A stretch of 64,000 nucleotides of DNA from Alphaproteobacteria bacterium. GTDB lineage: Bacteria; Pseudomonadota; Alphaproteobacteria; UBA6615. This document shows, piece by piece, positions 26,032 through 44,136 of the stretch (position 1 is the stretch's first letter; every line of letters starts with the position of its first letter). The notes beneath the pieces were generated by a model. It was given only the letters and a program-made list of their open reading frames with translations. It did not search any database and was not told where the DNA came from. The stretch spans positions 146,261 to 210,260 of the forward strand of contig CBDHEC010000051.1 in the NCBI GenBank assembly GCA_965261975.1, in the 5' to 3' direction. Made by a program: the position numbers and the translations under genes.

Positions 26032-28142
26032 CTAACCCGAACGCGCGTAGCGCACGGCGGCGTCTCTCTCGAACAGATACAACAAGGTACGCAGCGCATC
26101 GCCACGTGCGGATTCGAGCCCGGGATCCCGGTTCATGATCAACCGCGCATCGTCACGGGCCATCGCCAGCAATTCTCCATGGGCTTCGAGATCGACCATC
26201 CGGAACTCCGGCAACCCTGACTGGCGCGTTCCCAGTACGTCGCCAGCGCCGCGCAAACGCAGATCCTGCTCCGCGATCTCGAACCCATCGTCGGTATCCC
26301 GTAACACGCGTAGCCGTTCGCGCCCGGTCTGGCCGATCTCATGTCCATAAAGCAGCAGACAGGTGGGCGTCACGCTCGCCGCGCCCGATACGCCCCCGCA
26401 GTTGATGCAACTGGGCCAGACCGAAGCGCTCGGCATGCTCGATCACCATGACGGTCGCCTCGGGGACATCGACGCCCACCTCGATCACCGTGGTCGCCAC
26501 CAGAACATCAATCGCCGGCTCGACCCCGTCGGCAAACCGGGCCATCACCGCGTCTTTCTCCTTGCCCGCCATCTTGCCGTGAACGAGCCCGACCCGGTCG
26601 CCGAAACGTTCACGCAACGCGCTGTGGCGCGCGGTCGCGGCCGCGACGTCTATGGTCTCGGATTCTTCAACGAGCGGGCACACCCAGAAGACCTTGCCGC
26701 CGGCATCGAGCTGTCGCTGCACGCCGGCGACCGCGTCTTCGAGGCGGTCCACCGAAGCCGTCGTCGTCTTGACCGGCTTGCGCCCGGCGGGCTTCTCGCG
26801 CAGTTGGGATTCTTCGAGGTCGCCATAAGCGGCGAGCATCAGGGTGCGCGGGATCGGCGTTGCGGTCATCAACAGCACATCGACCGCCGCGCCTTTCTCG
26901 GCCAACAGGAGGCGTTGATGCACGCCGAACCGGTGCTGCTCATCAACCACGGCCCACCGCCAGGTCGTTGAATGCGATGTCACTCTGAAACAGTGCGTGG
27001 GTGCCGACCACGAGGGGGATGTCGCCGGATGCCAGGTTTTCTAGAATTTCGGCGCGCGCCTTGCCCTTGTCCCGACCGGTCAGCAACACACAAGATACGC
27101 CCGCGGCCTCGGCCAAGGGTGCAATGGTGGCGTAATGCTGGCGCGCGAGGATCTCGGTCGGCGCCATGAGTGCCGCTTGTCGTCCCGCCTCAACGGCCGT
27201 CAGCATGGCCATCAGGGCCACCACGGTCTTCCCGCTGCCGACATCACCCTGCAGCAGCCGCAGCATTCGATGCGCCGAACCCATATCCTCCTCGATGTCG
27301 ACGATCGCCGTTTTCTGGCTGCCCGTGAGCTCGAAGGGCAGGGCATCCAGCACTCGGGATCGCAGGCGCCCATTGCCGGTGATCGGCCGGCCCGCCTGTT
27401 TGCGGACATGTGAACGGACCAGCATGATCGCCAGCTGGCTCGCCAGAAGTTCGTCATAGGCCAACCGCATACGCGCCGGTGATACCGGATCGAGATCCGT
27501 GAGCTCGCCCGGCGTATGAGTTGCCGTCAACGCGTCATGCCAACCTGACCATTCACGTTGGATTACAAGCGACGGGTCGAGCCATTCCGTCAGATCCGGT
27601 GCGCGCTCCAGGGCCCCGGCCAGCGCCTTGCCGAGCACGTTTTGCGACAGGCCTTCCGTCAATGCGTAAACCGGCTGCACCCGCATCACCTTGTCCCGCT
27701 CGGACGGCTTGGCGACGATGTCCGGGTGGGTCATCTGCAGTTTGTCGTCATAGAGTTCCGCCGACCCGCTCACGAGCCGGATTTCGCCTTCGGGCAACGC
27801 TTTTGACAGGTAGTCGGCCCGGCCATGGAAATAGACCAGGGTGATTTCGCCGGTGTCGTCCCGGCAATCGATACGGTAGGGGATTCGGCGATTTGCCACC
27901 GGTGGCGCATGATGTTTAACGACGGTGAGCTCGAGCGTGGCGATGCGCCCCGTTTCAAGGTCGACCAGGTTGGGGCTGTAGCGGCGGTCGACGATGCCTG
28001 TCGGCAAGTGCCAGATCAGATCGACAATCTGCGGGCCGACCAGGCGCTCGATATGGGCACCGATCCGCGGCCCGATGCCTTTCAACGCCGTCACCGGTGC
28101 GAACAGGGGAAACAATATCTCTGGGCGGGCGCGTTGGGGCAC
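26032..28142 (-). CDS. recG: ATP-dependent DNA helicase RecG (two +1 frameshifts, at about 26953-26955 and 26365-26367, probably sequencing errors)
   Basis: LQGDVGSGKT, VVDEQHRFGV, ATTVIEVGVDV, QLRGRIGRG and DGFEIAEQDLRLRG are spread over three overlapping ORFs. Confidence 0.95.
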
Positions 28143-33614: not shown

Positions 33615-34130
33615 GTGACGGTGAGCAGCAAAACCTACAATGTACTCTTCATCTGCACCGGCAACTCGGCGCGCAGCATCCTTGCTGAGGCAATCCTAAA
33701 CCGGGCGGGCAACGGCGCCTTCAACGGATTCAGTGCGGGGAGCCACCCAACGGGTGCCGTAAACCCTCACGCCATGGAGTTGCTGAAGAGCCTCGACCAT
33801 CCAACCGAAAACCTGCGGTCAAAGGATTGGCAGGAGTTTGCTGCCGACGACGCACCCGCACTCGATTTTACGTTTACGGTGTGTGACAACGCCGCCGGTG
33901 AGGTCTGCCCTGTCTGGCTCGGCCGACCGATGTCGGCGCATTGGGGACTGCCGGATCCCGCTGCCGTGACCGGCACCAGGGCCGAAATCGCCGCAGCATT
34001 CACAGAAACCTATCGCGCGCTCAGCAATCGCATCGAGACCTTCATTAACCTACCGATCGCATCCCTCGATGCACTTTCCCTGAAAAATCACCTCGAGGAG
34101 ATCGGTCGTGATCAACCGGAATCGGCGTAG
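33615..34130 (+). CDS. arsC: Arsenate reductase, LMW-PTP type
   Basis: VLFICTGNSARS, FTVCDNAAGEVCPVW, AHWGLPDP; the real start may be GTG 33621. Confidence 0.93.
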   Translation: MTVSSKTYNVLFICTGNSARSILAEAILNRAGNGAFNGFSAGSHPTGAVNPHAMELLKSLDHPTENLRSKDWQEFAADDAPALDFTFTVCDNAAGEVCPVWLGRPMSAHWGLPDPAAVTGTRAEIAAAFTETYRALSNRIETFINLPIASLDALSLKNHLEEIGRDQPESA

Positions 34131-34133
34131 TAT

Positions 34134-34826
34134 TTGATCATGAACGATCACGATTTGCCGCGGCGGCTGGCCGCAGAATTTATCGGCACAGCTTTTCTCC
34201 TGGCGACGGTAGTTGGCTCCGGCATCATGGGAGAAACCTTATCCGGTGGAAATGTCGCCATCGCACTGCTCGGCAATACGATCGCCACCGGTGCTATTCT
34301 CGTTGTCCTGATCCTCGTTTTCGGCCCCATATCGGGTGCGCACTTCAACCCGGCGGTAACGCTAACTTTCCTGATTCGACGTGAAATCACGCCCGGTCAC
34401 GCGGTGATCTATGTGGTCGTTCAGATCGTGGCCGGCTTGGTTGGCGTCTATGTCGCGCATGTGATGTTCGGCGAACCGGCGTTCTCCGCATCACTTCACG
34501 CACGCGCCGGGATCGGCCAATGGACCGGTGAGTTCGTCGCCACATTCGGCCTGATCGCCGCGATACTTGGTTGCCTGCGTTTCCGGCCCGACGCCGTTCC
34601 CTATGCCGTCGGGCTGTTCATCACCGCCGGCTACTGGTTCACGTCTTCCACGTCCTTCGCCAATCCCGCCGTCACGATTGCGAGGTCTCTCACCGACACC
34701 TTTGCCGGGATACGGCCCGAAGACGCGCCGTTTTTCATCGCGGCGCAACTGATTGCTGCCGTCGTGGCGACGCTGGTCTTCACTTGGTTTGCCGCGGGTG
34801 ACAGCGACCAGCCGAATTCAAAATAG
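34134..34826 (+). CDS. MIP family aquaporin (arsenite channel, AqpS-like)
   Basis: SGAHFNPAVT and STSFANPAVT NPA boxes; directly follows arsC. Confidence 0.9.
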   Translation: MIMNDHDLPRRLAAEFIGTAFLLATVVGSGIMGETLSGGNVAIALLGNTIATGAILVVLILVFGPISGAHFNPAVTLTFLIRREITPGHAVIYVVVQIVAGLVGVYVAHVMFGEPAFSASLHARAGIGQWTGEFVATFGLIAAILGCLRFRPDAVPYAVGLFITAGYWFTSSTSFANPAVTIARSLTDTFAGIRPEDAPFFIAAQLIAAVVATLVFTWFAAGDSDQPNSK

Positions 34827-39255: not shown

Positions 39256-40466
39256 TTACTCCGCCGGGTCCGGACGGTCGAACATATAGTCGCGAACGAC
39301 GGACATCCCGTCACGCTCGCGCGAGATCATCAGCTGGAACACCATGTTGGAGCCGTGCAGGAAGCCGAGTTCAACCGCGGAAAGATAGAACTCCCACATC
39401 CGGCAAAAGCGTTCGTCATAAAGCGCACACGCCGCATCGCGTTCGCCGCGAACCGCTCCCGCCAGTGCCGGATCGTGTGATAATAGTGCAGCCGCAGCAC
39501 TTCCATGTCGGCCACCCAGAGACCCAGACGTTCGGTCACTTCAAAGACTTCCGACAGCGCGGGCACATAGCCGCCAGGGAAAATATATTTGCGAACAAAG
39601 GGACCGGTGGTTCCCGGCGGCGTCATCCGTCCCACCGAGTGGACGAGGGCGAGGCCATCCGGCGTCAACAGGTCTCGAACCTGCCCGAAATACTCATCGA
39701 AATGTCCGATCCCGACATGTTCCATCATGCCGACAGAGACAACCCGGTCGAACTGGCCGGAGAATTCGCGGTAGTCCTGCAGCACAAACCGCACATTCGC
39801 ACCGACCCCCGCCGCATCAACCCGTTGTTGGGCGACGGCCATCTGGTCCGGCGACACATTCAGCGAGACAACGTCGGCCCCCGCGCGCGCCAGCTCGATT
39901 GCCAGGCTGCCCCAGCCGCCGCCGATCTCGCAGACCCTCATGCCCGGCTCGATCGCGAGCTTGCGAACGATGCGGGCGAGCTTGGCCTTCTGGGCCTCTT
40001 CCAGGCTGTCGTCGGGTGAATGGAAGAAGGCGCAGCTGTAGTTCATGCCTTCGTCCAGAAACAGCCGGTAAAGATCCTCCGACAGGTCGTAGTGATGCTG
40101 CGCCTGGTTTTTCGCCCGTTCGACGGAGTTTTGCTGTTGCCGCCGCCGCCGGGCGCGCCAGATCCGGCGCAGGGTTCCCTGTACCGGGTGCGCACCAAGC
40201 GCCTTACGGTTGATCGAGAACAGGAACAGCAAGTCGTGGATGGTCGTGCCGTCCTCGCAGGTCAGCGTGCCAACCATATAGGCTTCGGCGGCGACCAGTT
40301 CCGGGTTGAAAAACAACTGCCGCGCGACGGCCCGGTTGTGCAGGCGCAGCGAAACCCGCACCACATCGTTGCCATCGCCGAATTCATGCGTCGCGCCTGA
40401 AGCATCCTGAATGACCAGCGTGCCACGGCGCACGAAAGACCGGAGGAGGTTAGCGAGAAGACGCAC
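39256..40466 (-). CDS. cfa: Cyclopropane-fatty-acyl-phospholipid synthase (1-nt deletion at about 39441, probably a sequencing error)
   Basis: HHYDLS, YSCAFF, EIGGGWG, YIFPGG; the conserved YDERFCRMWEFYL continues in the adjacent frame to TAA at 39256. Confidence 0.9.
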
Positions 40467-40554
40467 AAAGCACCTGCGTGTTGTGATCCTTCGAGCCTAG
40501 CCGAAATGCCGTGGATCGGGAACGGTCATCGGAGAAACCGAATGGTCGAAAGTT

Positions 40555-40644
40555 TGGCGGAGGGGGTGGGATTCGAACCCACGAGACGCTTGCACGCCTG
40601 CCAGTTTTCAAGACTGGTGCCTTCAACCACTCGGCCACCCCTCC
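40555..40644 (-). tRNA. tRNA-Ser (anticodon UGA)
   Basis: GGAGGGG/CCCCTCC acceptor, CCAGT-CTTGAAA-ACTGG anticodon arm, long variable arm, GCCA end, 90 nt. Confidence 0.97.
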
Positions 40645-41768
40645 GTGCCGCATTCGGATAGCACCCGGTGGCGAAGTTTGGAAAGCCGTTCTTGCGAAGC
40701 AGCATAGCGCAAATCATCGACCAGCCGCCGCACATCGCGAATCTGAAACAGCACGCGGCTCATCGAATAGCGAAGCTCCAGTGCTGAATCCTGGTTGCGA
40801 AGCGCAACAGTGATGTCACTCTCGATATCGGCGATCGGCGCGCGCAAGTCATCGCCGATCTCGTCGAGGACATCGCGACGCTTGGTCTCGAGGTCCTTCA
40901 ACGCCTCATGCGTCTCGCGCAATTCGCGTGTCTGTTCCGCCACCGTAGCCTCGAGCTGCGAACGTGACACCATCGTATCGCGAAGACTTTTCGCCATCTC
41001 GTCGAAAGCGTGTGCCAACTCGCCCAGTTCGTCGGTACGGCGGGATGAAATCTTGACGCCGAAGTCGCCGGTGCCGATGGATTGCGTTGCACGCGCGAGT
41101 TCGCGGACAGGGCGGCTCATGCGTCCCGCCAGGAAGACTGCAGCTATTCCCGCCAACATCAGCGCGACAGCCAGCACCAACGCGAGGCGTAATTCGAGTT
41201 CTTGCAGCGCTGCGTCCGCCACCTTCGACAACTCGGCCTGCATCGCGGTTACCTCGGCACTGATATATTGCGCATTGAAGACGACCTCGACCGCGCCGAA
41301 GACATAGCCGTCCTCTACGATTGGTTCGATCACGCGCAGATTCGCCTCATCGGTTTCCTGTCCGGGTTGTTTGCCTCGCAGTGCATCAACAACGCGTTGC
41401 GGGGCCGGATCGCCAAATCGCGGCAGTTTCTGTGAGCCATCATGGAAGACCGTCTCGTCTCGCCCATAAACACTGACCGACCGCACGTCGTCTCGCTCGA
41501 CAAGCGGACGGATGATGTTGCCAACTCCCGAGATATCTTCCGCAAAAAGCGGCTCCAACAGCCGTTCAGCCGTAATTCGTGCCGTCGAGACGGCCTGCGT
41601 GCGCGCATTCGAGGTCAAAACACTATCCAGCCGTTCGAGGTTCTCGATCTCAAAGGCATGCACGATACGGTCGATTGTCGCGCGCTGAGCGCCCAAAACG
41701 ACAATGGCGACGCCCGCGACAAGCGCGACGAGTGTGAGGACGTATTTGGTACGGAGCCTGAATTTCAT
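40623..41768 (-). CDS. Membrane sensor with periplasmic domain, HAMP and degenerate HisKA; no HATPase domain
   Basis: Two TM segments, HAMP (SRPVREL...DELGELAHAFDEM), H-box-like IGDDLRAPI, RRLVDDL; ends inside tRNA-Ser. Confidence 0.8.
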   Translation of the reverse strand: MKFRLRTKYVLTLVALVAGVAIVVLGAQRATIDRIVHAFEIENLERLDSVLTSNARTQAVSTARITAERLLEPLFAEDISGVGNIIRPLVERDDVRSVSVYGRDETVFHDGSQKLPRFGDPAPQRVVDALRGKQPGQETDEANLRVIEPIVEDGYVFGAVEVVFNAQYISAEVTAMQAELSKVADAALQELELRLALVLAVALMLAGIAAVFLAGRMSRPVRELARATQSIGTGDFGVKISSRRTDELGELAHAFDEMAKSLRDTMVSRSQLEATVAEQTRELRETHEALKDLETKRRDVLDEIGDDLRAPIADIESDITVALRNQDSALELRYSMSRVLFQIRDVRRLVDDLRYAASQERLSKLRHRVLSECGTEGWPSG

Positions 41769-41770
41769 CG

Positions 41771-42751
41771 TTAGCCTCCGTGACGCTGGCGCACGGCGTC
41801 ACGGATCCGGTCTAGCGCAGCATCCGTTGCCGGATCGACTTCAACGTAGCGGCTGACCCCGAAGTATCTTTTCATTACCGGTGCGGCGGACTCATCAAGA
41901 TGCATGGCCAGCAATACCTCGCGCAGCCTGGATTTCATCGCCGGCGGAAGAGAACGGCGAACCAACAGAACCGAACGCGGCACCCATTGGGTCAGATGAA
42001 ACACACGAAGTTTGGGCCTGAAGCGTTCGGTCATCACCTCCGGATCGTCAAGATCTGTCTCACTGATAGCGCCCACATCCATGCGTCCGCGAACAACTGA
42101 ACCGACAACATTCACTTCGGATCCCGAGAAGGCGTAAAGGACCGTCATGTTGTCCGGGCTTCGAACCCCGACGGGGGACAGATCGAGGCCGGCATCCATG
42201 ATCTCGAGATAGGGCAGAAAGAACCCGGACGTCGAACCCGGATCCTCGAATGCAACCGTGCGGCCGCGCAAGTCCGAGATTGATCTTATATCACTGTCTT
42301 TCTGCACGATCAGCGCGCTTCGGTATCGCGTCACGTTTCGTTTCCACTCGAGGAGCATGATTTCCATTTTGCCCGTGTTCTCGAGGCGCGCGGCGGTAAA
42401 TACGGTTTCGGATATCACGTCGATCTCGCCGCGCGCAGCCGCCGCCAGGACGTTTTGAACGTCCGCGTCCATCACGATTTCCGCACGGGTTCGAAAGTCA
42501 GCACCCAACCGGTCCGTCAGATACTCTCCGAAGGCCATCAATCGACCGGCGTGTTTTCGCGGGTTTCCCGATACCCGACCGATCGTCAGTGTCTTTTGCG
42601 GAGCGTGCATGGCCTTGTCGTCCGCGGCCCACGCCGCAGAGGTTGCCGCCGCCAGATCGACAAGCGCTAGAAACACCACACAGAAAGCGGGCAGGAAATA
42701 CTGCCGCAGCAACGGACCGGGTTGATCGAGCATCATTCTATAATACCGCAC
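41771..42751 (-). CDS. PhnD-type phosphate/phosphite/phosphonate-binding periplasmic protein
   Basis: Signal peptide, YRSALIV.KDS.I.S..DLRG..VAFEDPGSTSGFFLP; start may be 42733-42736. Confidence 0.88.
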   Translation of the reverse strand: MRYYRMMLDQPGPLLRQYFLPAFCVVFLALVDLAAATSAAWAADDKAMHAPQKTLTIGRVSGNPRKHAGRLMAFGEYLTDRLGADFRTRAEIVMDADVQNVLAAAARGEIDVISETVFTAARLENTGKMEIMLLEWKRNVTRYRSALIVQKDSDIRSISDLRGRTVAFEDPGSTSGFFLPYLEIMDAGLDLSPVGVRSPDNMTVLYAFSGSEVNVVGSVVRGRMDVGAISETDLDDPEVMTERFRPKLRVFHLTQWVPRSVLLVRRSLPPAMKSRLREVLLAMHLDESAAPVMKRYFGVSRYVEVDPATDAALDRIRDAVRQRHGG

Positions 42752-42895: not shown

Positions 42896-43734
42896 ATGCC
42901 GAACGAAACAGCCATAGCCCCGTCTCATGTCCGGGCGGACGTGAAGTATATGACTGACACCGGGGAGAAGCGGTTGATCTATATCCCGTCGGAAGCGGGA
43001 CAGGACAATTCGAAATGGGCCGGCCTGTATGAAGACCGTGAGGTCGACATCCACAATGCACGCAACATGGCAGACCCCTTCGACCTCGACACCGCGGGCT
43101 TCGCCATCGTCTTGCAACCCAGTGCCGTGACCGACTTTTATGACGATGTGCAGATCTCCGACACCTATGAAGACGAGATCGTGGCGCTTCTCGAGAACCG
43201 GACAGGCGCGAAGCACGTCCATATTTTCGATCACACGCGCCGAGCGGATTCAGAGTCAATGCGCGCGGAAAAAGTCGTCCGGGAACCCGCCGGAGTCATT
43301 CACAACGACTACACGCAAGCCTCCGCTGAAAAGCGCGTGCGCGATCTATTTCCGGCAGACGAGGCAGAGGACCTTTTTTGTCCCGTCGGTTTGCCATCGT
43401 CAATGTCTGGCGATCATCGAACAATGCGATGATCGAAACCGCACCGCTGGCCCTGTGTGATGCACGCAGCGTGCACGACAAAGACCTGATCACCGTGGAA
43501 CGCCATTCGAAGGACCGAATTGGCGAGGTCCAGCAGGTCCTCTTCAATCCGGCCCACAAATGGTTCTACTACCCGGGTCTGCAAGCCGAAGAGGCATTGT
43601 TGATCAAGACATATGATTCCGCCGTCGACGGGCGAGCGCGCTTTTCTGTTCACACGGCGTTCGAGGACCCGTCGGCTTCGCCTGACGCGCCCCCGCGCGA
43701 AAGCATCGAGACCCGCGCGTTTGTGTTTTACTAG
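42896..43734 (+). CDS. CmcJ/NvfI family oxidoreductase (frameshift in T-run 43374-43379, probably a sequencing error)
   Basis: IFDHTRR, IHNDYT | RFAIVNVWR, PLALCDARS, HTAFEDP..RESIETR. Confidence 0.85.
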
Positions 43735-43770: not shown

Positions 43771-44136
43771 CTATTCCGCCGCAGCACCGCGCAAGTCGCG
43801 CAGCGTGACAATATCCTGCAGAACATCGAAGGCGTTGCCTGGCAGTTCATAGAACTCGCCGCCAAACTTCCCGTCCTCGACCTCGACATTCGTGATGTTC
43901 ACGAGGATCAGCACATCGCGATTCCGGTAGTCGGTAAACCGCAACTCAGCCAACTGGTCCACCTCAGGCCAGACAAGGTCCTTGGTCACCTGCTTTGCAC
44001 CATCGGCGCCGAATCCCGACAAACCGATGTCGAGAATACGGATCGGTTGATCATCGAGCATTGCCTCGATGACGATCTCGCGGCGACGATCGCGGCGGCG
44101 ATCACCACTCGTATACCCAATGACTCGTGTGGCCAT
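43771..44136 (-). CDS. PilZ-like domain protein
   Basis: DRRRDRR (RxxxR) followed by DIGLSG (DxSxxG variant). Confidence 0.6.
   Translation of the reverse strand: MATRVIGYTSGDRRRDRRREIVIEAMLDDQPIRILDIGLSGFGADGAKQVTKDLVWPEVDQLAELRFTDYRNRDVLILVNITNVEVEDGKFGGEFYELPGNAFDVLQDIVTLRDLRGAAAE

Follow-up and report, generated by a model that had tools for sequence, protein, structure and literature searches.

The solute-binding protein XAC2383 reportedly binds a diguanylate cyclase encoded next to it, XAC2382, through the cyclase's periplasmic Cache domain. XAC2383 is said to prefer phosphate-containing ligands, and its homologues reportedly pair with Cache proteins of various outputs. Another such pair, AioX/AioS, is described in passages of PMC8050422 and PMC5908839 as a PF12974 binding protein together with an sCache-like kinase. 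Here we describe a gene pair for a binding protein and a membrane sensor in a 64,000-nt stretch of contig CBDHEC010000051.1 (the window) from the genome of an uncultured marine alphaproteobacterium (G000). The sensor lacks both the phospho-histidine and the ATPase domain of a kinase. We propose, with moderate confidence, that the pair is a two-gene receptor of the XAC2383/XAC2382 type whose output is reduced to a catalytically inert helical hairpin, resembling the dimerisation and histidine phosphotransfer (DHp) domain, that acts by protein contact.

The binding protein and the adjacent sensor

The binding-protein gene (41771..42751, minus strand) encodes a 326-residue periplasmic solute-binding protein that belongs to the Phosphonate-bd family. 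Its stop codon lies 2 nt from the start of a second minus-strand open reading frame (ORF; 40623..41768), which encodes a sensor-like membrane protein of 381 residues. A tRNA-Ser(tga) gene detected by ARAGORN (40555..40644, minus strand) is the conserved downstream neighbour of the locus and overlaps the final 22 nt of the sensor ORF. In every copy of the locus the gene order was a CmcJ-like gene, the divergent binding-protein and sensor genes, and then tRNA-Ser, with the pair retained in G010, G011, G044, G050, and G052. The neighbourhood was scanned as a greedy non-overlapping set of ORFs of at least 100 residues between 26.3 and 58 kb of the window (below, the picked ORFs). The picked ORFs yielded no match to HATPase_c or a kinase domain, to a receiver (REC) domain, or to the permease or ATPase of an ABC transporter, and no transcription factor. 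The closest REC match on the contig lay more than 140 kb from the locus, and the genome as a whole held 24 HisKA and 29 receiver matches.

The binding protein matched PF12974 (Phosphonate-bd, E 6e-43), carried the motif FEDPGSTSG, and began with a hydrophobic, signal-like segment (residues 13-43). Its nearest solved relative was PDB entry 5ub3 (of the set 5ub3-5ub7), which the single sequence matched at E 6.6e-42 over residues 54-320. PtxB followed at 7.5e-09, while PhnD and AioX surfaced only with the family profile. That profile matched 5ub3 over its whole length at 1.1e-78, compared to 7e-23 for PtxB, 8e-19 for ArrX, 1e-15 for PhnD, and about 1e-11 for AioX. A table in PMC10942540 lists 5ub3 as XAC2383 of Xanthomonas citri. 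Since the match to XAC2383 was far above that to PtxB, the pair is better compared with the XAC2383/XAC2382 receptors than with AioX/AioS or PhnD. The original prediction had called the protein PhnD-type. The family, the DPGSTSG motif, and the absence of ABC genes stood, but the TIGR03431 PhnD model scored only 94 bits against a cut-off of 261. With no ABC ATPase or permease gene beside it among the picked ORFs, the binding protein has no transporter genes of its own and does not resemble the PhnD subunit of a phosphonate transporter in its gene context. Elsewhere in the genome, contig C18 (61303-65922) carries a second Phosphonate-bd gene (E 1.8e-60) and a PhnE-like double permease, together at 63027-65922, beside a HisKA kinase gene. 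The genome thus encodes a further protein of this family besides the one in the window.

The sensor runs from a first transmembrane segment (TM1) through an sCache/PDC domain, a second transmembrane segment (TM2), HAMP, and a coiled coil to the DHp-like hairpin. Its hydrophobic segments (residues 5-32 and 190-218) bracket a periplasmic single-Cache/PDC-like domain (41202..41672, minus strand; approximately residues 33-189). HAMP (40977..41135, minus strand; residues 212-264) was the sole Pfam match in the protein (PF00672, E 3.4e-16), was supported by matches to HAMP structures in the PDB, and was all that a PDB sequence search with the sensor profile returned. An AlphaFold2 (AF2) model built from a 107-row alignment had a mean predicted local distance difference test score (pLDDT) of 86.5. 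In it, a long N-terminal helix precedes an alpha/beta domain (residues 79-165), followed by a helix at 166-232 that comprises the stalk, TM2, and the first HAMP helix, and two further helices (247-324 and 329-372) joined by a loop (325-328) into a helical hairpin. Foldseek matched the alpha/beta core to the PDC/Cache sensor domains of CitA (1p0z), DcuS (3by8), and WalK (4ywz), and the sensor to a full-length WalK model (E 4.8e-14).

The hairpin (40698..40880, minus strand; residues 297-357) is homologous to HisKA by alignment, although the Pfam HisKA model scored no match on the sensor even at E up to 10. Its H-box reads EIGDDLRAPI. D306 (codon 40851-40853, minus strand) fell in the phospho-His column both when MAFFT aligned the sensor to the genome's 24 HisKA regions and in an alignment with full-length kin. 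The kinase motif SHELRTPL lies over GDDLRAPI, and RRLVDDL follows in helix 2. A profile search covering 1.84 billion representatives identified complete kinases of 524-556 residues (P0030, P0031, P0032, P0034, P0037, and P0073) as the nearest kin outside the short family. Each has HAMP, HisKA, and HATPase_c and aligned through profile position 360, and the full-length kin matched PF17203 (sCache_3_2). When the orthologue from G010 was compared to P0030 by BLASTP, the match (E 6e-44) spanned 360 collinear residues at 29% identity. It stopped where DHp helix 2 ends, at ...DDLRFAARS / ...ADLLFITRS, and the HisKA match of P0030 (299-364) covers the stretch aligned to the hairpin. Pfam found no HATPase_c in the sensor, which ends where DHp helix 2 ends. 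By these alignments and the structural model, the C-terminal part of the sensor is a HisKA-derived hairpin. Much of what had been predicted from the letters alone was borne out: a sensor 2 nt downstream with the order transmembrane-periplasmic-transmembrane-HAMP-coiled coil, Asp in place of His with the second DHp helix kept, and neither an HATPase domain in the sensor nor a response regulator among the picked ORFs.

A family of short, His-less sensors

The original prediction had proposed a search for homologues of the same short length with a His-less H-box, and these were found. In a word-indexed search across 5.8 billion proteins, 24 cluster representatives came up, the window's own among them. 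The other 23 were 45-85% identical to the window sensor, and 21 of them were 367-373 residues long. Across all 24, 22 measured 367-381 residues and the remaining two were fragments (306-307 residues). HAMP was the only Pfam domain after the sensor domain in 24/24. No representative had His in the phospho-His column (Asp in 17, Glu in 5, Thr in 1, and Asn in 1), and the following position was Asp or Glu in all 24. The rest of the H-box was partly retained, with L308, R309 (20/23), and P311 (23/23) kept. The HisKA phosphatase motif, E/D-x-x-T/N, carries Thr or Asn at His+4. Thr was never found at that position and Asn in only 2 of the 23 (Ala in 9, Glu in 3, others in the remainder), such that the family does not carry the motif.

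Other features of the hairpin were shared as well. The start of helix 2 holds a different histidine, H334, in 22 of 23 relatives. The DLRxP remnant of the H-box and the loop LRNQDSALELRH were nearly invariant, and the natural C-terminus of the family, ...DDLRFA(A/S)RSxxPRRxxRxx, lies approximately 55 nt before the tRNA. Column conservation over the 24 proteins was 0.84 in the DHp-like part, 0.77 in the coiled coil, 0.71 in TM2 and HAMP, and 0.62 in the periplasmic domain.

Among 46 genomes of the GTDB order, the short sensor was present in 3 of 12 from the window's genus (G000, G010, and G011) and in 5 of 11 from a second, sister genus. In the latter it was intact in G043, G044, G050, and G052 and disrupted by a TAG codon and frame changes in G021, so that the two genera together hold seven intact copies. 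A 420-residue glyoxalase-like gene separates the sensor gene from the tRNA gene in G050 and G044, where the sensor is still 369-370 residues long, so the tRNA does not set its length. A scan of contigs with the family alignment returned 80 loci, all of them generic HAMP proteins (best segments 21-45% identity, short) and none a member of the family, since a generic HAMP motif was among its search patterns. The reach of the system is limited to a small family in two genera of uncultured marine Alphaproteobacteria, from which it is often lost.

We estimated the ratio of nonsynonymous to synonymous substitution rates (dN/dS) by the Nei-Gojobori method (NG86) on codon alignments, another check that had been suggested. 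For three within-genus pairs, the sensor gave 0.088, 0.130, and 0.136, ratios that are rough because dS (1.0-1.7) is near saturation. The proportion of nonsynonymous differences (pN, 0.11-0.17) was far below that of synonymous differences (pS, 0.62-0.64), a result that is robust to this limitation. The DHp-like part was the most constrained region of the sensor, with dN/dS of 0.060, 0.030, and 0.061 in the same three pairs and 0.078 between G052 and G043 of the second genus, compared to 0.09-0.15 for the periplasmic domain in the three pairs. Within the genus, the neighbouring genes for a luciferase-like monooxygenase and RecQ gave 0.04-0.06 and 0.06-0.12, respectively. Using G011 as the outgroup, G000 and G010 had accumulated 19 private amino-acid changes each, indicating that the window's lineage is not accelerated. 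The sensor family is clearly under purifying selection, and both His and the ATPase domain were lost long ago, a state conserved within a small group of marine Alphaproteobacteria.

Because this loss is old and conserved, the sensor probably signals by protein contact. Without an ATPase domain and His it cannot autophosphorylate, it also lacks the Thr or Asn of the phosphatase motif, and its output would therefore have to be a protein-protein contact. What follows on the type of ligand, on docking, and on how and where the output acts is inferred. The secreted binding protein would capture a small anionic ligand, as its conserved S-T-S-G oxyanion loop and phosphate-binding relatives suggest. 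It would then dock on the single-Cache domain of the sensor, by analogy with known pairs and in line with the conserved, almost abutting genes. From there the signal would reach the DHp-like bundle by way of TM2, HAMP, and the coiled coil, and the bundle would make a ligand-dependent contact with a cytoplasmic protein, whether a response regulator, a true kinase, or some other.

A more specific version of this idea is tentative. The module might be a ligand-gated DHp decoy and represent a third, non-enzymatic output class of XAC2383/XAC2382-type receptors, in which the ligand present in the periplasm governs the bundle's grip on a response regulator or its capping of a true kinase. An acidic residue occupies the His position in 22 of 24 representatives, next to the conserved Asp or Glu, and we speculate that it may imitate a phosphorylated H-box.

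Losses, the altered window copy, and other readings

Several observations weigh against a maintained receptor that acts by protein contact, in addition to the near-saturated dS and the absence of a regulator gene among the picked ORFs. A partner was not apparent from DHp likeness, as the 24 HisKA regions of the genome were only 7-22% identical to the DHp-like part of the sensor and none stood out as a candidate (19% for the PhoR-like DHp). Nothing linked the sensor to the Pho system, which the original prediction had named as an example of a two-component system that a ligand-gated decoy might modulate; such a decoy is a reasonable hypothesis. The pair is also dispensable, being absent from most sister genomes at 3 of 12 carriers in the genus and 5 of 11 in the sister genus. 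In G008 (L117:9560-9700), approximately 19 codons of the sensor 3' end (IRDVRRLVDDLRYAA...) remain beside tRNA-Ser, the deletion having taken the PilZ-like gene, the CmcJ-like gene, the binding-protein gene, and the rest of the sensor gene. In G002, G007, G009, and G017, the tRNA lies approximately 150 nt from the CmcJ-like gene and the pair is missing. An empty-site alignment of these four genomes revealed nothing recognisable of the pair between the tRNA and the CmcJ-like gene, so clean deletion and ancestral absence cannot be told apart there, and G008 alone proves a deletion. An in-frame stop interrupts the binding-protein gene in G010, and in G050 the gene is frameshifted at a G run, although this frameshift may be a sequencing error because the cyclopropane-fatty-acid-synthase gene of G050 is also split.

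The window's own copy has changed too. Alignment of the 3'-end DNA with G010, G011, and G008 revealed that G000 lacks 43 bp found in G010 and G011 (junction 40697/40696), a stretch that carries both the TAG stop codon and the codons of the conserved tail. As a result, the reading frame runs through the conserved region upstream of the tRNA and stops at a TGA inside the tRNA gene. Read-through adds 24 unrelated residues, which form a private C-terminal tail (40623..40697, minus strand; residues 358-381 and the stop codon). P0002, the closest database relative at 85% identity, retains the normal tail. The deletion removed S359, P362, and R363, which are at least 90% conserved, and a further change, H334Y, makes G000 the sole family member without any His in the hairpin. 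The ending of the ORF at tRNA-Ser, which had been taken as a feature of the protein, is thus real, with its 22-nt overlap, but arises from this private deletion and is not a family trait.

A misassembly near 40650-40720 had been named as a possible cause of such an ending, and none was seen. A Logan contig from sequencing run X1 (23,180 nt, depth 12.7) spanned 40300-41300 with 0 differences. A single assembler's error thus does not account for the deletion, but the data are probably not independent, X1 being the likely source sample. X1 was the only run that held the locus; the others, RNA runs included, covered the tRNA alone. The window's sensor is an altered allele, and its activity is less certain than the family's. 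The original prediction of a maintained protein rather than a fresh truncation accordingly holds for the family, given its 23 further representatives, seven intact genomic copies, and purifying selection, but not in full for the window's copy, with its tail deletion and H334Y.

These changes raise the alternative that the pair is an accessory module being lost, and that the sensor gene of G000 is functionally dead though still open. Its private deletion and H334Y are what such decay would produce, as are the relic in G008, the absence of the module from most sister genomes, the broken sensor gene in G021, the broken binding-protein gene in G010 and perhaps G050, and the frameshifted CmcJ-like gene next to the pair in the window. 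However, family members keep the same length even at 45% identity, with pN far below pS, and the G000 branch, at 19 private changes against 19, is not accelerated. Even in G000, the 357 codons before the deletion and the whole binding-protein gene are intact. We consider decay unlikely.

A second alternative would keep phosphate in the pathway. H334 at the start of helix 2 could take a phosphoryl group from a receiver, making the hairpin a ligand-controlled bundle comparable to Spo0B, ChpT, or a histidine-containing phosphotransfer (HPt) domain. His occupies this position in 22 of 23 relatives and the canonical position in no family member, and there are precedents: section 7 of PMC5847659 proposes that 'HisKA, no HATPase' proteins accept or transfer phosphate, and PMC2755868 describes RedE of Myxococcus as receiving phosphate from a receiver. 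In the AF2 model, however, H334 sits near the tip of the hairpin, a long way from the canonical site. In the window's copy this position is Tyr, and no receiver gene occurs among the picked ORFs, the nearest on the contig being the one more than 140 kb away. Phosphotransfer through H334 therefore seems improbable to us. It is just as doubtful that the pair has a periplasmic or membrane role only, for example to hold or present the binding protein on a cytoplasmic dimerisation stalk: neither a cytoplasmic partner nor an enzymatic output was found among the picked ORFs and the 24 HisKA regions, and a separate Phosphonate-bd gene with a PhnE-like permease exists on C18, but the DHp-like part is conserved and constrained beyond the periplasmic domain, as not expected of a mere stalk, and its DLRxP remnant and loop are nearly invariant.

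A possible lead to a partner, by ancestry, came from genomic homologues of P0030 in G378, G202, and G070, which precede an OmpR-type regulator but lack a binding protein. G000 has four OmpR-type regulators, none linked to the locus, leaving this a weak lead only. A conserved 121-residue protein (p121; 43771-44136, minus strand) encoded two genes away has the motifs RRRDRRR and DIGLSGFG and no match in Pfam or NCBIfam. Nearly all top Foldseek matches of its AF2 model (pLDDT 72) were PilZ domains (Alg44, MotI, MapZ, and YcgR), with weak E values from 4e-3, and on this modelling evidence p121 is probably a stand-alone PilZ protein that binds cyclic di-GMP. We rejected p121 as a specific co-occurring partner of the sensor, since it is present in 22 of the 46 genomes of the order, many of them without the sensor. 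It is nonetheless possible that it is another client of the bundle.

Between p121 and the binding-protein gene, a CmcJ/NvfI-family oxidoreductase gene (42896-43734, plus strand) falls into two frames in the window, which overlap. The CmcJ-like gene is a single ORF of approximately 278-281 residues in relatives (NF041278, E 5e-87 for the G011 orthologue), and the split in the window is a frameshift or an assembly indel. A RecG-like helicase (26339-28142, minus strand) also appears to lie in two overlapping ORFs, wedge plus DEAD (399 residues) and Helicase_C (214 residues), possibly through another frameshift or indel error in the assembly. A low-molecular-weight phosphatase/ArsC-type gene (PF01451) followed by an MIP-family channel gene (PF00230) at 33615-34826 (plus strand) resembles an arsenic-resistance pair, approximately 6 kb from the binding-protein gene. 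The 3' side of tRNA-Ser is a variable spot across genomes. G000 has a cyclopropane-fatty-acid-synthase-like gene there (39330-40466), G010 has RecQ directly next, and G011 has a 1436-residue NACHT antiphage gene between RecQ and tRNA-Ser (L111:4782-9092; NF058534 HyoA, 1498 bits). On the other side, approximately 55 nt upstream of tRNA-Ser (40645-40700, minus strand) are conserved across the aligned genomes and probably hold the tRNA promoter.

Relation to known systems

A receptor that acts by protein contact, the reading we favour, would bear on a form of signalling known from few well-studied cases. Kinase-derived signalling without phosphotransfer is represented by DivL, RetS, and RocA, and 'incomplete kinases' have been counted in censuses with none characterised. 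This family is a clean natural case in which the sensor, the transmembrane relay, and the DHp bundle are under selection while both catalytic elements are gone. Its own periplasmic receptor, with a solved close relative, makes it a tractable system for asking what a lone DHp bundle does and how separable HAMP-to-DHp signalling is from catalysis.

RetS is a histidine pseudokinase that acts via protein contacts. DivL is likewise described in parts of PMC4211667 as a histidine pseudokinase acting via protein contacts, and passages of PMC7028121 describe RocA as a pseudokinase that binds CovS and whose putative phospho-His is dispensable. All three are kinase-derived proteins that contact a true kinase or regulator without autophosphorylation, a contact that is only proposed here. 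They differ from the window family in that they retain a domain resembling the catalytic and ATP-binding (CA) domain, and RocA its His as well, whereas the window family lacks a CA domain altogether. None of the three is paired with a periplasmic binding protein.

Similar in domain content are the incomplete kinases classed as 'HisKA, no HATPase' (P2CS; Galperin et al. 2018, PMC5847659), which combine a sensor domain with a HisKA-like dimerisation domain and no ATPase domain. According to section 7 of that paper, they retain His, and no member has been studied experimentally. A class of 'incomplete HKs' (iHK) also appears in parts of preprint 10.64898/2026.02.27.708494. The class of Galperin et al. 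keeps His and is mostly archaeal and cytoplasmic (PAS/GAF), in contrast to the window family, which is His-less, bacterial, and transmembrane, with Cache and HAMP domains and a binding-protein partner. A literature search outside most subscription journals and without the XAC2383 paper, Teixeira et al. 2018 (J Biol Chem 293:10767), in which such short forms might be mentioned, turned up no HAMP-DHp protein that lacks both His and the ATPase and has a binding protein as its partner.

AioX/AioS was the comparison drawn originally. It and the ArrX and ArxX systems sense arsenic oxyanions, and they share with the window pair a transporter-less PF12974 binding protein and a membrane sensor with an sCache-like periplasmic domain. 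However, AioX (about 1e-11) and ArrX (8e-19) are distant compared to XAC2383 (1e-78), and XAC2383/XAC2382 displaces them as the model for the pair. AioS is moreover a complete kinase beside AioR, whereas the window sensor has neither His nor an ATPase domain. No regulator or oxidase gene was found near the pair among the picked ORFs, which places it outside the AioX/AioS/AioR systems.

The resemblance to XAC2383/XAC2382 extends to both genes. The window's binding protein has XAC2383 (5ub3) as its closest solved relative, and the adjacent co-directional gene encodes a protein with a Cache domain between two transmembrane segments, followed by HAMP. The 46 kin of the sensor module carry differing outputs, as the XAC2383 homologues reportedly do, with HATPase_c in 38, GGDEF with or without EAL in 6, and short forms, possibly fragments, in 2. 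Full-length kinase kin in G015, G014, and G057 sit directly behind a PF12974 gene. The window sensor differs in its output. While 44 of the 46 kin have an enzymatic output (GGDEF/EAL or kinase), the sensor has a His-less, ATPase-less DHp-like hairpin that is neither GGDEF nor kinase. The module is a variant of the XAC2383/XAC2382-type bipartite periplasmic receptor.

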